Below are positions 3,237 through 27,871 of a DNA stretch of 41,111 nucleotides, in pieces. Source of the stretch: a virus (Duplodnaviria > Heunggongvirae > Uroviricota > Caudoviricetes). The notes beneath the pieces are model-generated. The model did not search any database and was not told the DNA's origin. It was given only the letters and a program-made list of their open reading frames with translations. The position numbers and the translations under genes were made by a program. How positions within the stretch are numbered: the first letter of the stretch is position 1; every line of letters begins with the position of its first letter. The stretch lies in the IMG/VR virus record IMGVR_UViG_2724679059_000002, positions 1 through 41,111 of that record, one strand, 5' to 3'.

Positions 3237-5231
3237 CTAATTAACTAATGAAGGGAATGTCGTATTAATTACAAGAACTGTTCCTGACGGATAGCTCTGA
3301 ATTGTAACTTTACCGTTTGAAAGTATATTAATGAGGGCAACCGATGAATCAGTACCTGATGGAATATAAGAAATATCATTCTTTGGTCTAAACCCTTCTG
3401 GCAATACCATAATAACTGTGCCAACAGATGTATTTCCACCTGTTAAAACAGCAGATAAAGTAACAACGCCCTCGGCTGATTTCTGATATGTTCCACTTCT
3501 TGCCTCACCTACAGACCAACCATTTTGCAATATGCCACTCATATCATACTGATTACCTCGCCATGTACTCCATGTATTCTCACTAATCCTTCCAATCCTC
3601 ATTAAGCAAACGCGAGCATTATCTGAAGAATAACCATAATTTTTTTGTACTACTATTCCGTCAACAAATCTATCAACCTGAATAACACCATCAAGAGGCC
3701 AAGAAGCATCATCAGGGTTTGTTCTCCACCATGAAGTCCCCATGTGAAAAGTATTTGGCGGATATGAGCTATTGATGAATTGTATGGAAGAACCATTGTT
3801 AGAAAAAAGGTTGCTACTCCCATTTATAACAGCACACGGTCCATAAATATATTCAAATAATAATTTATGTATCTGTGCGCTAAATGTTGAGTTTGGGTGT
3901 ATTCCCCTTCCATCGCCATAAGGGTCATCAAGCCAGTTACCAGCAGATCCTCTCGAATCCTGCCACATACCGTAAGTATCAAAAAACATACACTTATATT
4001 GTTTTGCTTTGGCTCTAAGTACGGCTGTCAGCTGCTCATACCATTTTTCATCACGTCCGTTTGGTGTGTCTGATGTTGAATTTGGAGACATGATAATAAT
4101 TGATTGCTGGGCAACTGATTTATTATTTCGTAACTTTGAAAGACCTCTATCTAAAGCATCTTTTACTTGATCCAATGTATAACCATAATATGGATCGTTA
4201 ATTCCCCATCGTAAAACAATCAAATCAGCAGCAGAAAAAACAGACCATTCATGATCAATATACCAATTACCCCATTCGTATAGAGTTTTACCTGAATGGC
4301 CTAATGATGTATTTTTTACATCAATAATTCCATACCTCTTTGCATAAAAATCAGCAATAGTTGCTGGTGGCCATAATTCAGAGTTAACACCAACAATCGT
4401 GGAGTCACCAGACCACAAAATATATGTTTTCTGTGATTTATCCACGCCATCTGCTTTTATCATCTTGCTAATAACATAATTAAGATATTGGTCACCAGTT
4501 ACAAAACGGGAACGAGGGTCAGAATACGTTGTTAGTTGAACACCTTCTGTATTAAATACACGCCCCCTGCGTTGCTCAATTTCAACACCATATTCATTTA
4601 ACAATGAAGATACAATTTCATCATCTTTCATCGTAATTACAGTTTGACCGGCTATAGATAAGTTTATGGCTTGCTGTATATTATTCCCTACAGCTCCAGT
4701 TCTTGTAATATCTGGACGCAAAGTACTATCACCACCTTCTATATACCCTTCAAGATAACTTAAAGTTACTGCATCCTGAGGGCTTTCTGGATCTTTAAGA
4801 TTTCTAATCCTGTTATTTAAAGCGTCGTACCAGTTTGCAATACTTGATGGTTTGCAAAGTGCAAGACGAAACAAGCTACGACATTGTTGAATCAGCATCG
4901 TTAGCTTATCAAACGCATCCTCATGCACCTCTGCAAAGAATTTACCCTGATTACGCAGATCTGTTTCCTGAGTAACCGGGAGCTCTCGTGATATAGAGAT
5001 CTGATAACCGTTGGCCAATGCCTTCGACAGTATTATATTACCGCCTCTATAGCCTCCCGCACCAGTGACTGCGTAATCAGTATCAAGAGCCAGCACAGTG
5101 ATATTCTCGTCAAGGTCAATCACCTGCACCACCAGATCAGATTTCTGGAAAATCCTAAAGGTATAAGGGAACGTAGTTGTAACACCGTTACCTGTATATT
5201 CGTTGTGGTCAACTTCGGTTGAGACCGTCAT
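3237..5231 (-). CDS. Tail fibre/tailspike: T7-like N-terminal adaptor domain fused to SGNH/GDSL esterase-like C-terminal domain
   Basis: N-terminus MTVSTEVDHNEYTGNGVTTTFPYTF...TDYAVT aligns by eye with T7 gp17 N-terminus; C-terminal region has WSGDST (GDS motif) and a distal DxxH-like motif (GRGIHP); C-terminal DNA looks AT-rich. Confidence 0.7.
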   Translation of the reverse strand: MTVSTEVDHNEYTGNGVTTTFPYTFRIFQKSDLVVQVIDLDENITVLALDTDYAVTGAGGYRGGNIILSKALANGYQISISRELPVTQETDLRNQGKFFAEVHEDAFDKLTMLIQQCRSLFRLALCKPSSIANWYDALNNRIRNLKDPESPQDAVTLSYLEGYIEGGDSTLRPDITRTGAVGNNIQQAINLSIAGQTVITMKDDEIVSSLLNEYGVEIEQRRGRVFNTEGVQLTTYSDPRSRFVTGDQYLNYVISKMIKADGVDKSQKTYILWSGDSTIVGVNSELWPPATIADFYAKRYGIIDVKNTSLGHSGKTLYEWGNWYIDHEWSVFSAADLIVLRWGINDPYYGYTLDQVKDALDRGLSKLRNNKSVAQQSIIIMSPNSTSDTPNGRDEKWYEQLTAVLRAKAKQYKCMFFDTYGMWQDSRGSAGNWLDDPYGDGRGIHPNSTFSAQIHKLLFEYIYGPCAVINGSSNLFSNNGSSIQFINSSYPPNTFHMGTSWWRTNPDDASWPLDGVIQVDRFVDGIVVQKNYGYSSDNARVCLMRIGRISENTWSTWRGNQYDMSGILQNGWSVGEARSGTYQKSAEGVVTLSAVLTGGNTSVGTVIMVLPEGFRPKNDISYIPSGTDSSVALINILSNGKVTIQSYPSGTVLVINTTFPSLVN

Positions 5232-5335: not shown

Positions 5336-5350
5336 TTACCTTTCAGGTGA
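5336..5350. promoter_or_regulatory. Operator-like palindrome TTACC-N5-GGTGA upstream of antirepressor-like gene
   Basis: Member of the recurrent TTACC-N5-GGTAA family; flanking sequence resembles region 24338-24410. Confidence 0.45.
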
Positions 5351-5730: not shown

Positions 5731-5999
5731 ATTTACATCGCACTCCTCTTGTGCCATAGTAATCGGGCACTGGCAAAATCCAGTGCCGGGATTGGCGTCC
5801 CGATTTACTAAGTGGCGCATACCACGCCAGACGTGGTTTTTTTATGCGTTAAGCACAGCTATATCCGAATTATGGTGGGCTGGGCAGGGGTCCGAAAGGA
5901 CGCCGGTACCACTTAGGCCGGTACGCCAACCTTGTCCAGTTCACCACCAGTAATTGGCGTTGCGGTGGTGATTAAAATCACTAAGTGGAGATAACCACC

Positions 6000-7641: not shown

Positions 7642-7803
7642 ATGAAAAAAGCATTTGCTGCACTGTTCGTTTTGTTGTCTCTGGTAGCTTCAACTCAGGC
7701 CTTTGCCGGTCGTTGTCAGCACGACAGCGATACTGCCGCTGACGGCTCCCGCTGCGGTGGGCGTTCTGCGGATTCCCGCCCGGGCGGCGGTGGCATTCGT
7801 TAA
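7642..7803 (+). CDS. Small secreted Cys-containing peptide
   Basis: 53 aa; signal peptide MKKAFAALFVLLSLVASTQAFA; Gly/Arg/Asp-rich mature part with 2 Cys; weak RBS. Confidence 0.35.
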   Translation: MKKAFAALFVLLSLVASTQAFAGRCQHDSDTAADGSRCGGRSADSRPGGGGIR

Positions 7804-22115: not shown

Positions 22116-22408
22116 TCCTGTTCACTGGCCTCTTTGGCCATCTTCAAATACTGTTCAGGGCAATGCGCCATAACGCGCTGAAACAGTTCCAGCGCCAGAT
22201 TGCGTTGCCCCTCATTAAATGCCATTGCCATAGCGTCCATCGGTGAGATAGCGGAAAACACACGGCCTTTCTCCAGCACCGACCAGACAACGCGACGCCC
22301 CTGTTCACTGCTCATGACAAAGCGAATGTCATCAATTTCACGCTGTGCCATGTCACGTTGCTTACGGGCGTTTTCTTCTTTCAGTTGATCATCTTCGTAA
22401 TCTGTCAT
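22112..22408 (-). CDS. Hypothetical small protein between portal and scaffold
   Basis: 98-aa ORF with coupled stop/start to neighbours. Confidence 0.4.
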   Translation of the reverse strand: MTDYEDDQLKEENARKQRDMAQREIDDIRFVMSSEQGRRVVWSVLEKGRVFSAISPMDAMAMAFNEGQRNLALELFQRVMAHCPEQYLKMAKEASEQE

Positions 22409-23043
22409 TGTGATTGCCCACCCTGACCACTAACTGCATTCGCCATAGCTGACAAAACACTCGGATCCGAAGTTTTAGCTTCGCTTAGCGTCTTGGCGCC
22501 CTGTGCCGCCGCCATTCCCATCGCCATCATTTGTTGCTGCTGTTGCTGCTGTGCCCGTTGCTGGCGAGCCTGCTCAACCTGTTCCTGCGGAACAATGACG
22601 GTTGGAGACACTCCGGACATATCAGCGAATGCATCGATCGCCTGATCAACGTTGAGTTTGTCGAGAGCTTCTGGTTTCGCTTGCGCAAGTTGACCAATGA
22701 AGTTGACCGTAGACGCCAGACTGGACAGGCCGATAGACTTCTGCGCCTGAGCCATGACGGAAATGTATTCGACCTTCAGGGGCATACCTTCCATCGCGTC
22801 AGGCGGTGGCGGCAGCATGTTTTTACGCACCATCATCGAGAAAGCGCGGTCAATGAGAGGATTAAGACATTCGTCGTTCAGACGCTCCAGAACCGGCCCC
22901 AACATCAGAAGTTTTTCTTCTTTCATTTCGATCACCGCTTCAACAGGCATCGAGCGGGTATTGATGTTCTGCAACATCATGAACAGATCGACAAAGTAGG
23001 CGCTGTTAATGATTTGACGAGTGTCCTGAATGTCTGCCACCAA
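22405..23043 (-). CDS. Portal (head-tail connector) protein, C-terminal part after apparent frameshift
   Basis: C-terminus QQRAQQQQQQQMMAMGMAAAQGA resembles the T7 gp8 C-terminus; this frame stays open upstream past 23043, so the gene appears interrupted by a 1-nt frame change near 23070-23110. Confidence 0.55.
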   Translation of the reverse strand: MVADIQDTRQIINSAYFVDLFMMLQNINTRSMPVEAVIEMKEEKLLMLGPVLERLNDECLNPLIDRAFSMMVRKNMLPPPPDAMEGMPLKVEYISVMAQAQKSIGLSSLASTVNFIGQLAQAKPEALDKLNVDQAIDAFADMSGVSPTVIVPQEQVEQARQQRAQQQQQQQMMAMGMAAAQGAKTLSEAKTSDPSVLSAMANAVSGQGGQSQ

Positions 23044-24083
23044 ATCTGCTGTACTGGGGTTAACCAGATAAGCAGGCCTGAAGCCATCCTGACCAGTATC
23101 TGATCGATATACGTGATGTCGCCAGGAAGAAGGGAGGCGCGCTGATTCTTGAGGGAAGTCGGAGCAACCATCGGCGGATTGGTGGCTTTATCAATCAACT
23201 GCGACTTGCGCTTCTGGAGAAGCTGCAATGCCTTAACAGGTCCAAGCGCCAGCATACCAGGGCATGATGATCCATAAACATCTTCGCCGTTAACTTCCCA
23301 GCGCGGAGCCATAATTGGAAACTCATCGAATCCGGACTCACGCAACAACTTGTCGTTATCGCCACCAACCTCGTAATAAACCGATTTGAATGGCTTGTTC
23401 TTGCTATCCAGCTTCGATGTATCGCGGTCAATGTTCGGGTAAACCGAATGCATCACTTCAATCCACTTCTCGTAGGTGCCGCTTTCCCACATGCTTTTTA
23501 CGGATTCGCTGACGTTATTTAGCCCGAACTCCTGAACAAGCTGACGAACAGTCATAGAGAACTTGCGAAAACAGGTGTCCACACTGCCACGAGGTGAGTT
23601 AGCCAGGTAGTAACTGCCTATCGGGAATGGCATTGTGCGAATGATGTCCTCGTCATCCTCCAGCACTGCCATTGCACCAGTGCTGTATGTGCCGAGGCTT
23701 CCGTATAACTGCGGCAGCGACTGGTAGAGATTCGACTTATTGAACATATCGTTCATGCGGTTCTGCACCGCCTCAAGCCACAACTTAACAGGGCCATAAT
23801 CCATCATTTCAGGATCTGGCGTAGCCAGGCGAAACCACGGACGCGCGGGGCTTGTGATGCCTGACATCATGCCGCTGGCGAGAGTGCGCGCCGCCATAGT
23901 CCCGGTCGAATCAATAATGCGTGTATTGCGCCGATCGTTACGGTTGACCTCAGAAGTCAGAAAGCGGGAACCACGCGGGTTGATGTAATCACTCAACTCG
24001 CGCCAGTGCGGCTCGAACGACTGACGCTCGCTTTCAAGTTGTGCGAACTGTTTGTTCAATCGCTCTTTGGTTGTTTCCGCCAT
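22977..24083 (-). CDS. Portal (head-tail connector) protein, N-terminal part
   Basis: 368-aa ORF with RBS ggag; immediately follows terminase (across the tRNA/moron insert); joined with 22405..23043 gives ~560 aa, typical T7-type portal size. Confidence 0.6.
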   Translation of the reverse strand: MAETTKERLNKQFAQLESERQSFEPHWRELSDYINPRGSRFLTSEVNRNDRRNTRIIDSTGTMAARTLASGMMSGITSPARPWFRLATPDPEMMDYGPVKLWLEAVQNRMNDMFNKSNLYQSLPQLYGSLGTYSTGAMAVLEDDEDIIRTMPFPIGSYYLANSPRGSVDTCFRKFSMTVRQLVQEFGLNNVSESVKSMWESGTYEKWIEVMHSVYPNIDRDTSKLDSKNKPFKSVYYEVGGDNDKLLRESGFDEFPIMAPRWEVNGEDVYGSSCPGMLALGPVKALQLLQKRKSQLIDKATNPPMVAPTSLKNQRASLLPGDITYIDQILVRMASGLLIWLTPVQQIWWQTFRTLVKSLTAPTLSICS

Positions 24084-24097
24084 TTCAATGACTCCGG

Positions 24098-24304
24098 TTA
24101 CTGACCAAGTAGCGTTTTACCGCTGGTATTAGCGGTTGATGTGTCGCCCTGAGAACCGGTAAGCAGCGTAGAACTACGACCAGCAGCAGCGCGACGGCGA
24201 CGAGTTTCTTCGTCGCGGGCATCAACAACGGCGGCATCCTGCTCCTGTGGTGCTGCCTGAACTTCTGGTGTTGCAGGCACTGACGGTGAGCTACCCATGC
24301 ACAT
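24098..24304 (-). CDS. Small hypothetical protein upstream of portal
   Basis: 68 aa, RBS ggag, stop overlaps the portal start region. Confidence 0.35.
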   Translation of the reverse strand: MCMGSSPSVPATPEVQAAPQEQDAAVVDARDEETRRRRAAAGRSSTLLTGSQGDTSTANTSGKTLLGQ

Positions 24305-24372
24305 ATCAATGACTCCGTACGCAATTAAATTATTACCAATTTAACCATATATGATTTATTTATCGTAGATAG

Positions 24373-24409
24373 TTGACATTTAACGCACAAATTATTACCT
24401 TTCAGGTAA
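24373..24409 (+). promoter_or_regulatory. Candidate promoter (TTGACA -35) with overlapping operator TTACC-TTTCA-GGTAA, directed toward the tRNA and moron
   Basis: Perfect TTGACA at 24373-24378; operator at 24395-24409; same architecture as the promoter at 36105-36147 and sequence similarity to 5285-5350. Confidence 0.4.
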
Positions 24410-24731
24410 CCAAAGAGTTCATTCCGGTTACTAACCTGACTGGCTTGTCGTTAAATTGAACAGGTGGAGTGAGCTTTTATTTTGAGCAGTACGGCGTATG
24501 GCACATGCTACGATAGCGGTCTGGATACGTTTAAGGGGCACCCTCCCTTGCTCGGGCAAACGAACCAGGTAGCCGGAATGTGCAAGTCGAGCGGTTTTAT
24601 TCCGCGCACGGGGATTCACCATCCCGGCGATTCGGTGTGACGCCTCGGAAGAGACGAGGGTACAACGATGAGAGCATTTATGGAGCCGCGACAAAGTGTG
24701 GCGCCTTAACAGGCTAAGTGCTCTCAGCGTT

Positions 24732-24808
24732 GTGGCATTAGCTCAGTTGGACAGAGCAACCGCCTTCTAAGCGGTTGGTCGCAGGTTCGAATCCTGCATG
24801 CCACGCCA
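24732..24808 (+). tRNA. tRNA-Arg (anticodon UCU), phage-encoded
   Basis: Full cloverleaf: acceptor GUGGCAU/AUGCCAC, D-arm gctc-agttggaca-gagc, anticodon stem accgc/gcggt with loop cuUCUaa, T-arm gcagg-ttcgaat-cctgc, discriminator G and encoded CCA; close to E. coli argU in the arms. Confidence 0.9.
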
Positions 24809-24851
24809 GAATCACGCCTAAGGACCGTGATGCCAGAAGTTCCAGGCGCTT

Positions 24852-24893
24852 GGCGGTGATAGTTTCCCTTGAAGGACTATCACCGCCCTTTTT
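24852..24893 (+). terminator. Intrinsic terminator after the tRNA
   Basis: 12-bp stem ggcggtgatagt / actatcaccgcc followed by cttttt. Confidence 0.7.
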
Positions 24894-24923
24894 ACAGCAG
24901 GACGCCATTGCGATGACTTCATG

Positions 24924-24939
24924 CTGTAAACCCGTACAG
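24924..24939. promoter_or_regulatory. Weak LexA-box-like motif
   Basis: CTGT-aaacccgt-ACAG fits CTGT-N8-ACAG but the spacer is not AT-rich. Confidence 0.25.
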
Positions 24940-24971
24940 CCACGGAAGGCATAACTCATTGCTTCCAGTTC

Positions 24972-24994
24972 GCCCGGTTCGCCGGGCATTTTTT
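24972..24994 (+). terminator. Hairpin plus U-tract 12 nt upstream of the moron start (terminator or attenuator)
   Basis: gcccgg-ttcg-ccgggc followed by attttttaagg, then RBS aggtga and ATG at 25006. Confidence 0.45.
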
Positions 24995-25005
24995 AAGGTG
25001 AGATC

Positions 25006-25425
25006 ATGAAGACAATTGATATGTTGGCTAAGTATCTAAATGAATGGCCATTAAAATATTCTCGTATCGTTCAGGCTGAAGACTGCATTTTTTATGGCGT
25101 TTTTGCTGGTAATGAAATGCATTACGAAGTAATTCAGAGTGAGGGACTGGCCGGGTTAACTCTTAGCGAAGACCATGGTACTAGCGTTACGTTCCATGAC
25201 TGGATAACAGCACAACGTTCTGAAATGGAAAAAGGCGATGTTTTTGATATTTCTCGCGCTGTTTACGCTAAAGCAAAAAGTGATAATGATTACATGAGCG
25301 AACACTTATACAACATGAAGTTACAATGCCTGCATGCGGCGCTTATTCAGAATGGGCACTTCGATAAAACAAGTGCCATCAATATTGCGGAAGCCATCAA
25401 CGCTGGATTTAATGCCATTAAGTAA
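25006..25425 (+). CDS. Moron gene of unknown function (AT-rich, opposite strand to the flanking late genes)
   Basis: 139-aa ORF with RBS aggtga; between terminase and portal on the opposite strand; flanked by terminators on both sides; no recognisable domain by eye. Confidence 0.6.
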   Translation: MKTIDMLAKYLNEWPLKYSRIVQAEDCIFYGVFAGNEMHYEVIQSEGLAGLTLSEDHGTSVTFHDWITAQRSEMEKGDVFDISRAVYAKAKSDNDYMSEHLYNMKLQCLHAALIQNGHFDKTSAINIAEAINAGFNAIK

Positions 25426-25445
25426 CACCGTGACATGTCACAAAC

Positions 25446-25475
25446 AGCCAGCCGATGAGCTGGCTTTGTTTTATC
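25446..25475 (+). terminator. Intrinsic terminator after moron gene
   Basis: cagccagc-cgatga-gctggct hairpin followed by ttgtttta. Confidence 0.45.
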
Positions 25476-25515
25476 CTCATCAGAGGATATCAACGACATT
25501 ATCCCCACCAGCGGA

Positions 25516-26991
25516 TTAAGCATATGGATCGTAATCTGTGATGGCCTTGCCTTGCTGGTTCTGCTGCCCGGGAATTCGCAGACGCTTCGACACAGGGAAC
25601 GCAAACGTCAGCAGTAGCGCATCGCCTTTACCAGGAGAACGCCCAAGCCGCTCCTTGATATCTTCCTTCGGTTCGATAACGATTTTACCGTCCACTCGAA
25701 CTTTGTACTCTGCCGCAGACAGGTCGTCCGCTGTTTCCTGGTCATCCAGCATGCCGCCCAGCCTCAGCCATGTCTTGCATGAGTTGAACATCTCCCCACG
25801 CTTGTTGAGCATCTGCGGGTCAGTAGACGCGCCACCGAACGGAACAAGTTGCCATGTACGACCCCAGCCATCACCGATTGACTTCAGACCAGTTCCGTAA
25901 CCGAAGTCGATGAACACTGCGTCAGCCTGGTACCGGTCTTCAAAGTCAGCGATACGCTTCGCCATAATCAGATCGTCAGTGGTCTTGTTGCCAGTCCACA
26001 GCACCTTACTGTGCAGCCCCTGCCGCAGGTATATCACAGCGTCATCAACGCCGGAGTATGCCGGGTCAACGCCGATTATCACCGGAGCATGTGCAACCTG
26101 CGCAGCGGTTACCACCCGTTTCATTGCCTCGTCAGTAAGGCCGGTAGGGATAAACTGCAATTCAGATGCATCCGGGAATATGCCGCGCACACGGATTTTA
26201 ACGAAGTCGCTGTCTTCCCCGTAGTCATCAACCCATTTCTGCAACTGCTGTTTGTTAGTGCCTTCCACCGTCCGGCTGTCAATCTGCGCAGTTTTCCAGC
26301 GGTGTTTATATTTGCGGAAACATTCGCGAAAACGCCCGGTGTTACGTGTAGGGTTTCCGAACGCCACCCAGATAATCTCAGTGTCTTCGTCCGTAAGCGC
26401 ACCCTCAGCAACTTCCCACACCAGATCCGCAATGTTCGACGCTTCATCGAATACCACGATGATGCGTTTGCGCTCGTTGTGTAGTCCGGCGAATGCCTCA
26501 GTGTTGTGCTCAGACCAGGGTATTGCGTCAGCCCGCCACCGCTTGTCGTGCCCAGGGTCATTGCTGTACATCGCGGTAGCGGTACAGGTAAACCAGTCTT
26601 TCGTGATAGCAAGGTTCGACCACTTGATAATTTCCGGCCAGGTCTTCGTTCGTAGCTGGTTGTCGGTGTTGGCGGTCACCACGACCTTACAATCCTCGCA
26701 AGTGGACATGCCCCAGTTGATCAGCATTGAGATGAATGCGGATTTACCAATACCGTGACCAGAAGCGCGTGCCAACATAAGCGGCTGATAGCGCGTCTCT
26801 GGATTCTGCAGGTGATCACGTATCTCTCGGAACGCATCAGCCTGCCACTGACGTGGGCCGGTAGCATGTGCCAGTTCAGTCCCCTCTTCCCCCCACGGGA
26901 ACGCATAGAGGGCATAGCCAAGCGGATCGTGAGTGAACCCTGCAATATCCTCGATTAACTGCTCTTCAGGAGATAACGCTGTATCTGTCAC
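25516..26991 (-). CDS. Terminase large subunit
   Basis: 491 aa; Walker A-like GHGIGKS; acidic nuclease-type motifs in the C-terminal half; positioned between terS and portal. Confidence 0.8.
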   Translation of the reverse strand: MTDTALSPEEQLIEDIAGFTHDPLGYALYAFPWGEEGTELAHATGPRQWQADAFREIRDHLQNPETRYQPLMLARASGHGIGKSAFISMLINWGMSTCEDCKVVVTANTDNQLRTKTWPEIIKWSNLAITKDWFTCTATAMYSNDPGHDKRWRADAIPWSEHNTEAFAGLHNERKRIIVVFDEASNIADLVWEVAEGALTDEDTEIIWVAFGNPTRNTGRFRECFRKYKHRWKTAQIDSRTVEGTNKQQLQKWVDDYGEDSDFVKIRVRGIFPDASELQFIPTGLTDEAMKRVVTAAQVAHAPVIIGVDPAYSGVDDAVIYLRQGLHSKVLWTGNKTTDDLIMAKRIADFEDRYQADAVFIDFGYGTGLKSIGDGWGRTWQLVPFGGASTDPQMLNKRGEMFNSCKTWLRLGGMLDDQETADDLSAAEYKVRVDGKIVIEPKEDIKERLGRSPGKGDALLLTFAFPVSKRLRIPGQQNQQGKAITDYDPYA

Positions 26992-27584
26992 TGATTACCA
27001 TCCTGACGTTCTTTGAGTCGCTTCCTGGCTGCTGCTATGCGATCAGCAATTGTCACATTCACATTAACATCCAGGCGTTCTTTGAATGCGTTGACGTCGA
27101 CGTGCTTACCAATCAGTTCGAGGTTCTTCACCTTGTCAGGCCATTTAATTTTTTTGAGGATTGTCTCTATCGAATCCTCGTTCATGTTCATGATGGTCGA
27201 TGACAGATCAAAGCCGCTAAGCGTAGTGCGCCAGATTTTCGGCCACTCGCGGATTGGCTTAAGGCTCCCATCGTCGTTGAGGATGTCGATCACGTCCATC
27301 TGGTCGATCTCCACCAGGCGCATGAGAACGTAATCAGCACTGACGCGCATTCGTTTGTTGCGCTCCTCCATCAACTCGGCAATCCGTTTCTGAATGCGTT
27401 CATCGCGCATCATGACACTGGCTTTAACTGCCGCTGTATTTGGGGAGAATCCTGCGTTAATCGCAGCCTGAGTCTGATTTTCAGGCGTTTTGATGTATGA
27501 CTGGCAATAAGCCTCCTGCATTGCTGTTAGTGGCTTAAATTGCGTTGATTTGCGTTTATAGGTTTTAGGTTCAGCAGGCATCAT
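26988..27584 (-). CDS. Terminase small subunit (P27-family-like)
   Basis: Immediately upstream of and overlapping terL; start assigned to internal ATG-ATG at 27584 (track ORF begins at a TTG at 27662). Confidence 0.6.
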   Translation of the reverse strand: MMPAEPKTYKRKSTQFKPLTAMQEAYCQSYIKTPENQTQAAINAGFSPNTAAVKASVMMRDERIQKRIAELMEERNKRMRVSADYVLMRLVEIDQMDVIDILNDDGSLKPIREWPKIWRTTLSGFDLSSTIMNMNEDSIETILKKIKWPDKVKNLELIGKHVDVNAFKERLDVNVNVTIADRIAAARKRLKERQDGNQ

Positions 27585-27658
27585 AACCACCGTGGTAATA
27601 GTTACCGTTGTGGTAATAGTACCATGCAAAATAAAGCCGCCATAGTTGGCGGCAGTAT

Positions 27659-27871
27659 TCAAAGTCCATCAAATTCATCGTAAAAACTCTCGTCAAGATA
27701 CCCTTTCCATTTACCGCGAATGAAAATTACATCCTCGCCGCAAGGGTGCTGACTGTCGATAACTATATCCCTCCTGGCGCAACCATACTTATGCATGAGA
27801 AATTTAACCTCTTTCGGAAAATTAGCTGAGTTATCTCTCATATCTTCAAGGTCGTAGCGTATTTTTGGCAT
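27659..27871 (-). CDS. Hypothetical small protein upstream of terS
   Basis: Start set to ATG at 27871 (MPKIRYD...) with RBS gaaggtg; the palindrome GTGACATGTCAC lies immediately upstream. Confidence 0.4.
   Translation of the reverse strand: MPKIRYDLEDMRDNSANFPKEVKFLMHKYGCARRDIVIDSQHPCGEDVIFIRGKWKGYLDESFYDEFDGL

Follow-up and report, generated by a model that had tools for sequence, protein, structure and literature searches.

What does the short + strand unit between the large terminase (terL) and portal genes of a podovirus prophage do, and is its most telling part the gene that it carries or the long leader in front of that gene? The question is raised by the window, by which we mean the whole stretch of 41,111 nucleotides (nt) that was analysed (IMG/VR record IMGVR_UViG_2724679059_000002) and which is a Uetakevirus (phiV10/epsilon15-like podovirus) prophage. 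The unit occupies a conserved + strand slot of such prophages, where an operator-bearing candidate promoter would drive a leader RNA, a tRNA-Arg, two terminators, a swappable open reading frame (ORF) and a final terminator (Table 1). The original prediction, made from the sequence of the window, saw here a tRNA and a moron, at a site of the kind that often carries genes for lysogenic conversion or defence. We report that the leader RNA belongs to an abundant, unannotated and pseudoknotted RNA family, which may help RNA polymerase to pass terminators.

A conserved pseudoknotted RNA in the leader

A long structured leader was part of the original prediction, and this part stands; what had been missed is that the leader contains a conserved RNA family common to lambdoid and P1-like phages. 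Our structure model was built by hand and comprises six helices, two of them pseudoknots. These helices are 97.1% paired across 64 representatives sharing less than 90% identity, and compensatory changes are found in 13 of the 30 pairs (141 cells). None of 500 shuffles reaches the observed value on any of five measures, and slid controls are at most 44% paired; covariation was counted in a 25-sequence set as well. The leader is shown to be structured by this covariation, thermodynamics alone being weak (z = -1.63 for its minimum free energy, MFE). The RNA can be assigned to the + strand because G-U pairs fix the strand. Its copies are 162-190 nt long, length differences that are not multiples of three are confined to variable hairpins, and the family keeps long invariant single-stranded and pseudoknot segments.

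The core is followed by a closing hairpin, P7, whose final base doubles as the start of the tRNA; core and P7 together make an RNA of ~245 nt that is fused directly to tRNA-Arg(UCU). Compensatory variants of P7 occur in loci L009 and L020, and large, differing inserts are found inside it at other loci. Two helices proposed by RNAalifold (14-16/120-122 and 31-33/108-110) showed no covariation and were replaced by helix P1. There is also a subclass of the RNA (L040, L041, L064, L065, L073, L080, L090 and L275) in which P6, with its loop GAAGAGA, is replaced by a CAGA-CGATA-TCTG hairpin and GGUGUGAC is shortened to GGUGAC; the 5' two-thirds of the RNA are retained, as is its location between cI and the early-left operon.

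Distribution of the RNA family

BLAST of positions 24440-24731 gave matches of 70-83% identity to unannotated DNA of unrelated phages. Among lambdoid phages these are mEp460, cdtI, 2H10, Ayreon, Stx2c and Stx2a phages and BUCT708; further matches are P1, P7, D6, SJ46, hundreds of P1-like plasmids and other Uetakeviruses. Collections of genomes, viral sequences and metagenomes were also scanned for sequence patterns, which gave more than 260 loci with 181 unique sequences. BLAST detects the core in 1840 of 5426 complete E. coli genomes (34%), at 1918 chromosomal and 554 plasmid places, almost always without an annotated feature. All confirmed genome matches belong to Enterobacterales, barring one short contig binned as Bacillota. 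Four of 27 genome matches to an 18-mer (Dysgonamonadaceae, Oscillospiraceae, Bacteroides and Azonexus) have no match to the covariance model and were discarded as chance. No cargo of the slot comes near the RNA in conservation or spread. In Rfam 15, the tRNA is the sole match within 24250-25550 even at E<10, which leaves the leader without a family; a text search of the literature for the invariant strings of the RNA found nothing, and literature searches on P1 ban/trnI and on N-less Stx or SfV phages found nothing relevant.

As judged by the covariance model there is one copy per phage. The IMG/VR contig L053 carries two (3988-4156 and 4795-4961, - strand, 118 and 145 bits), which lie 640 nt apart and flank an oppositely oriented ORF of 166 amino acids (aa) between cI and the early-left operon; the pair looks like a duplication created by cargo insertion. 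In epsilon15 (L004, 2547-2660) only a remnant of 34 bits is left, without a tRNA. According to its record, the epsilon15 slot contains sites for the repressor, IHF and RNase III.

Genomic settings

The RNA recurs in three settings, namely the early-left leader of lambdoid phages, the region before ban in P1-like elements and the Uetakevirus slot, and in every one it is co-oriented with a transcription unit under the master repressor. The lambdoid order is repressor gene, terminator, operator-bearing PL-type promoter, RNA 40-120 nt further on and early-left operon. This layout was seen with at least four unrelated repressor/operator types, and no N gene is annotated downstream of PL in the lambdoid carriers. 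In mEp460 the repressor gene and its terminator are followed by a PL-like promoter with operator, the RNA ~40 nt on, and the early-left operon, two hairpin-plus-T-run elements standing ahead of the first gene; this promoter was read by eye, and no site passed the promoter scan. BUCT708 has a promoter with its own operator (1791-1819), the RNA (1940-2101), a strong terminator (GCCCGGGCGCCCCGGGC then T7, 2224-2240) and the first ORF at 2410; between RNA and first ORF there is neither a further promoter nor a further operator. L090 has TTGACA-18-TACATT at 7706-7735 and the RNA at 7787. In Ayreon the depositors annotated a terminator and a promoter before the position of the RNA, and a further terminator inside the operon. 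The early-left genes of mEp460 are of the yfdP/Q/R type, as in LLS, an N-less phage with such genes that "may have a put-like mechanism" (PMC12315714). The E. coli K-12 prophage CPS-53 has yfdP/Q/R as well, and the RNA is absent from it.

P1-like elements have the RNA in their ban operon, a unit controlled by C1, with trnI (tRNA-Ile2) on one side and ban on the other. A tRNA-Ile2 is found upstream of the RNA in 18 of 112 loci and a tRNA-Arg downstream, in the Uetakevirus slot, in 25; in the remaining 69, and likewise in the Uetakevirus slot of L281, the RNA stands without a tRNA. Pieces resembling a T-arm or D-arm, e.g., GTCCG-TTCGATT-CGGAC and GCGC-AGGCTGAT-GCGC, follow P7 or lie inside it in Stx2a_1447 (L005, ~2690-2800), SPN1S (L008, ~2110-2230) and mEp460 (L001, 3242-3270). 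ARAGORN makes no call there; these pieces may be decayed tRNA genes, hinting at an ancestral fusion of RNA and tRNA.

Probable repressor control of the slot unit

The slot unit begins with a candidate promoter whose -10 element and start region are overlapped by the operator palindrome of the prophage, TTACC-N5-GGTAA. A promoter with operator had been proposed, and both the TTGACA and the palindrome are there; the -10 is poor, and in a sigma-70 consensus scan of 24050-25600 no site passes, this candidate included. Among 24 unique tRNA-bearing contexts, TTGACA is retained in 19 and an operator lies upstream of the RNA in 23. The window holds 13 such palindromes against 0.73 expected. One pair (35312, 35360) lies between the cro-like and repressor genes, and another (36071, 36133) flanks a TTGACA promoter just after the repressor gene, in the PL region. 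Operators scattered in this manner suggest a dispersed regulon like that of the P1 C1 repressor, not control at OL and OR only. We infer that the slot unit is part of the prophage repressor regulon, off in the lysogen and on early after derepression. Since the slot promoter carries the prophage operator, the unit is probably repressed in lysogens and not a constitutive moron. A moron expressed in the lysogen for conversion or defence, as had been envisaged, thus fits less well than an early repressor-controlled unit, given the operator on the promoter and the two terminators before the ORF.

The Uetakevirus slot and its cargo

Within the slot, the RNA is near-constant, the tRNA optional and the ORF variable; in aligned sequences the leader, terminator 2, the ribosome-binding site (RBS) and the ATG stay constant while the ORF differs. 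The 1.2-kb region is 94-99% identical to that of the phiV10-like phages HEMP4 and PAS61, and prophages of 114 complete E. coli genomes fall in the same range. A + strand unit between terL and a gp3-like gene is the layout of phiV10, epsilon15, SPN1S, PAT1 and Tyrion alike. The view that terL and portal, normally adjacent, have been split by an insertion in this genome is not supported: the two are always separated in this phage family, also by the gp3-like gene (24098-24304), and the supposed insertion is a family trait. A tRNA plus cargo is the ordinary variable slot of these phages.

Other elements of the unit were correctly recognised by the original prediction. The tRNA-Arg(UCU) is called by ARAGORN, matches Rfam and has its CCA encoded. 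That it reads AGA codons for the phage is plausible, the ORFs of the window being rich in AGA (7.0 per 1000). E. coli itself uses AGA at about 2 per 1000, and the tRNA would supplement AGA decoding for the phage; the 139-aa ORF contains neither AGA nor AGG. There are also 64 records of Synechococcus phages with 80-90% identity to the query, presumably via the tRNA-Arg gene alone. The predicted hairpin terminators were borne out as well, with three + strand terminator-like hairpins in the unit (the scan gave four sites against 1.2 expected). Terminator 2 has the same offset in phiV10-type loci and an equivalent hairpin in other Uetakevirus loci whatever the cargo, and the phiV10 record annotates a terminator at the position of terminator 3. 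As for the weak LexA-like box, its CTGT-N8-ACAG core is present; the spacer (AAACCCGT) is not AT-rich, and of the 24 unique tRNA-bearing contexts only 18 keep the core, each of them with promoter and operator arranged in the phiV10 manner; it is missing from SPN1S-type and other divergent contexts. It is more likely to be merely a small hairpin.

The ORF behind terminator 2 was described as AT-rich, with a good RBS and no recognisable domain, and so it is: its GC content is 40% against 48.9% for the window, and neither Pfam, PADLOC nor a profile search of the PDB gave a match. All 103 homologs are named "hypothetical", and where the source names an organism it is one of the Enterobacteriaceae. 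The AlphaFold model is poor (overall pLDDT 59.8) and confident only in a C-terminal two-helix hairpin; the C-terminal ~50 aa recur in another family, whose N-terminal domain differs and whose members fill this slot in other prophages. That related prophages might carry different cargo here was confirmed by comparison: 33 Uetakevirus loci have ORFs of at least 10 unrelated families at this position, including gp49/66 (PF13876), the 139-aa family and a coiled-coil protein of 263-306 aa. A terminator downstream (25446-25465), atypical GC and cargo varying among relatives are all traits of a moron. A promoter directly before the ORF is not found in the scan of 24050-25600, and the only candidate promoter for the ORF lies 630 nt upstream, ahead of RNA and tRNA.

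Table 1. Features of the slot, its flanking genes and the operators of the window.
Feature	Position	Strand	Basis or remark
Direct repeat AAATTATTACC, upstream copy	24327-24337	+	Repeat search; second copy 24389-24399
Candidate promoter	24373-24401	+	-35 TTGACA 24373-24378, 17-nt spacer, weak -10 TACCTT 24396-24401; read from sequence
Operator palindrome TTACC-N5-GGTAA (TTACCTTTCAGGTAA)	24395-24409		Overlaps -10 and start region
Operator sites in window	5336, 5716, 6776, 24395, 27584, 27602, 33017, 33079, 34975, 35312, 35360, 36071, 36133		
Conserved pseudoknotted RNA core "E"	24488-24671	+	Covariance model, 148.5 bits
Helix P1	24492-96/24508-12	+	3 of 5 pairs form in window copy
Pseudoknot PK1	24501-06/24578-83	+	
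Helix P2	24516-23/24566-73	+	
Helix P5	24611-14/24622-25	+	
Pseudoknot PK2	24617-20/24634-37	+	
Helix P6	24643-47/24655-59	+	
Closing hairpin P7 (CAACGATGAGAGCA ... TGCTCTCAGCGTTG)	24663-24732	+	In predicted MFE fold
tRNA-Arg(UCU) (TCT in DNA), encoded CCA	24732-24808	+	ARAGORN; Rfam RF00005, 73.3 bits vs threshold 29
Intrinsic terminator 1	24852-24895 (hairpin 24852-24887)	+	14-bp stem then CTTTTT
LexA-like core CTGT-N8-ACAG (CTGTAAACCCGTACAG)	24924-24939		
Intrinsic terminator 2	24972-24994 (hairpin 24972-24987)	+	GCCCGGTTCGCCGGGC then ATTTTTT; abuts RBS
139-aa cargo ORF	25006-25425	+	RBS AAGGTGAG at 24995-25002; phrog_4846, function unknown
Terminator 3	25446-25472 (hairpin 25446-25465)	+	Closes unit before convergent terL
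Portal	22405-24083	-	
gp3-like 68-aa gene, phrog_831	24098-24304	-	Flank, upstream of portal
terL, large terminase	25516-26991	-	Flank, convergent with slot unit
terS	26988-27662	-	

How the RNA may act

In the window, two terminators separate the RNA from the ORF and the scan found no promoter between them; across lineages, different terminator sequences stand at the same offset, about +131 nt. Such arrangements have the layout of an antitermination-dependent operon, with the RNA as its sole conserved candidate effector. Because the layout is of this kind and the first helix matches putL, we tentatively favour a put-like RNA that acts in cis on elongation, against intrinsic terminators or against Rho. 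The slot unit would be silent in the lysogen and would fire on derepression or infection; the RNA would then act on the very RNA polymerase that made it, by put-like processive antitermination or by protection from Rho, and the polymerase would cross the terminators and a long untranslated stretch on its way to the genes downstream. A bolder proposal, which we consider less likely than not, is that the family forms a new antiterminator class, one that modifies RNA polymerase without a protein and replaces N/nut in many lambdoid phages, Stx2a- and Stx2c-converting ones included, and that P1-like phage-plasmids and epsilon15-like podoviruses have recruited it for transcription through untranslated RNA genes and terminators.

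RNAs of the put type are defined by terminator read-through in cis that depends on the zinc-binding domain of the RNA polymerase beta' subunit. Like putL and putR of HK022 and the putL-like RNA of HK639, the leader RNA is a structured RNA placed just after a repressor-controlled early promoter in N-less lambdoid phages and, in its lambdoid copies, upstream of terminators in the early operon. Its first helix of 5 bp, ACGGCG...CAUGCGUCG with a G-U pair, has the same sequence as that of HK022 putL and the HK639 putL-like RNA. The put RNA acts alone on RNA polymerase (PMC9378689). Unlike put, which measures ~70 nt and has two stems, the leader RNA has about 170-245 nt, two pseudoknots and six or seven helices; it is present in one copy per phage, no putR-like partner having been found by the covariance model, and its range extends to the P1 ban operon and to a structural-gene slot of podoviruses. 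A motif search of HK022 returned chance strings only. GGCGAUUCGGUGUGAC looks like upper stem II of put; the likeness seems superficial, since its GGUG pairs with the P5 loop (PK2). The HK639 record (L158, 9911-9970) annotates, besides the putL-like RNA, an "M3-like RNA" after cII in the right operon. With N/nut of lambda the leader RNA shares the position between PL and the early-left genes and its modularity as to immunity type; unlike that system, no N-like protein is encoded downstream. The boxA-like UGCUCU in P7 was rejected as a boxA, being a helix strand that covaries with its partner and not a conserved single-stranded box.

Several observations weigh against a put-like action. The homology to put is limited to one short helix, and the covariance model gives no match in HK022 or HK639 even when its filters are off. 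No canonical downstream terminators were found in L090 or P1, and a strict terminator scan downstream of the RNA is not enriched (38 on the same strand vs 34 on the opposite strand); an RNAfold-based scan was noisy, and only individual architectures are informative. In phage P1 the RNA is located mid-operon, 2.4 kb from Pban and not beside the promoter. Fully processive read-through in the Uetakevirus slot would run antisense into terL. The copy in the window has two mismatches in helix P1, and epsilon15 keeps only a remnant, so the RNA is dispensable for at least one viable phage. Finally, a discrete non-coding RNA (ncRNA) gene would account just as well for a strong terminator ~130-310 nt after the RNA. 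This last point leads to the main rival, rather unlikely in our estimate, in which the RNA is itself a stable trans-acting ncRNA made early after derepression: RNase P would separate it from the tRNA, or the terminators would end it, and it might act on a host or phage factor as a decoy, a sponge or a ribonucleoprotein component, with the cargo ORFs as passengers that owe their expression to leaky terminators. RNAs with a binding partner typically have long invariant single-stranded and pseudoknot segments such as these, and the frequent tRNA neighbours, the tRNA-like remnants after lambdoid copies, the strong terminators in many lineages and the mid-operon place in phage P1 all agree with it. 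The species 1 and 2 RNAs of T4, small stable ncRNAs co-transcribed with phage tRNA genes, may be a parallel; the leader RNA differs from them in being kept without a tRNA in most contexts. What speaks for the put-like reading and against a trans-acting RNA is that in BUCT708 and mEp460 the only operator-bearing early-left promoter lies upstream of the RNA, so the polymerase must cross RNA and terminators, and that the promoter-proximal leader position recurs over at least four immunity types.

The remaining explanations account for less of the evidence. An autonomous moron, i.e., a tRNA and a conversion or defence gene expressed in the prophage from their own promoter, with the leader as nothing but a long 5' untranslated region, would agree with the low GC of the ORF, the terminator after it and the varying cargo, which includes a membrane/coiled-coil protein of the kind found in exclusion systems; a variable low-GC ORF with downstream terminator between conserved structural genes is what lambda bor/lom or HK97-type morons look like. 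Unlike these, the slot ORF stands without a detected promoter of its own behind two terminators, and the promoter of the unit bears the prophage operator; PADLOC gives no match, and the leader is conserved and widespread far beyond any cargo. We consider this explanation improbable. Little credence is likewise given to a cis-regulatory sensor of the riboswitch kind or to a processing or stability element (entry of RNase III, E or P, or 5' protection) for tRNA and mRNA. Here the complex conserved fold in a 5' leader, the RNase III site annotated in the epsilon15 slot and the abutting of P7 on the tRNA 5' end are in favour, whereas the core lacks the overlapping terminator or RBS that would serve as expression platform, the next terminator being at least 130 nt away and beyond P7, and the RNA is retained where no tRNA exists. 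It is highly improbable that the conserved block codes for a protein on the - strand, as annotated in some records (e.g., mEp460_037). The window does have an 87-aa ORF there (24431-24694, - strand), and a weak PHROG match (E = 0.0014) exists, yet most records annotate nothing at this place. We rejected such coding because copy lengths differ by non-multiples of three and because pair changes are compensatory and G-U pairs strand-specific.

Other features of the prophage

The portal gene has a one-base deletion at ~23099 (- strand; GATT to GAT) relative to phiV10 and E. coli N25, which gives two ORFs (22977-24083 and 22405-23043) and points either to a defective prophage or to an error of sequencing. 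In the nearly identical prophage of E. coli N25 (L159, 14311-16061) the capsid cement gene of the Bbp16 family is split by an IS3-family insertion. On the + strand at 5767-5951, a match to Rfam isrK (68 bits) is directly followed by one to the C4 antisense RNA (66 bits), with operator palindromes just upstream at 5336 and 5716. In this podovirus prophage, isrK and C4 look like an immI (antirepressor control) module of the P1/P7 type. Two operator palindromes (27584-27616) also lie within the first ~25 annotated codons of terS, where the translation TITTTVTITTVV is odd. Translation of terS probably starts further downstream, at MMPAEPK, and the region just ahead of this start would be a promoter region controlled by the repressor.

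Significance for phage biology

Whatever its mechanism, the leader RNA is a new and abundant structured RNA present in about one third of complete E. coli genomes, and is also carried by many Enterobacterales prophages, P1-like plasmids and Stx phages, with no Rfam family and almost always no annotation in the records. It is placed where lambdoid phages that lack N need an antitermination device. How early transcription in these phages escapes termination has been left open, and the leader RNA is a concrete candidate. If it does act as such a device, E. coli phages would have just one other family of RNA-only processive antiterminators, and the RNA could bear on the early expression, and hence on the induction and toxin output, of some Stx2 phages.

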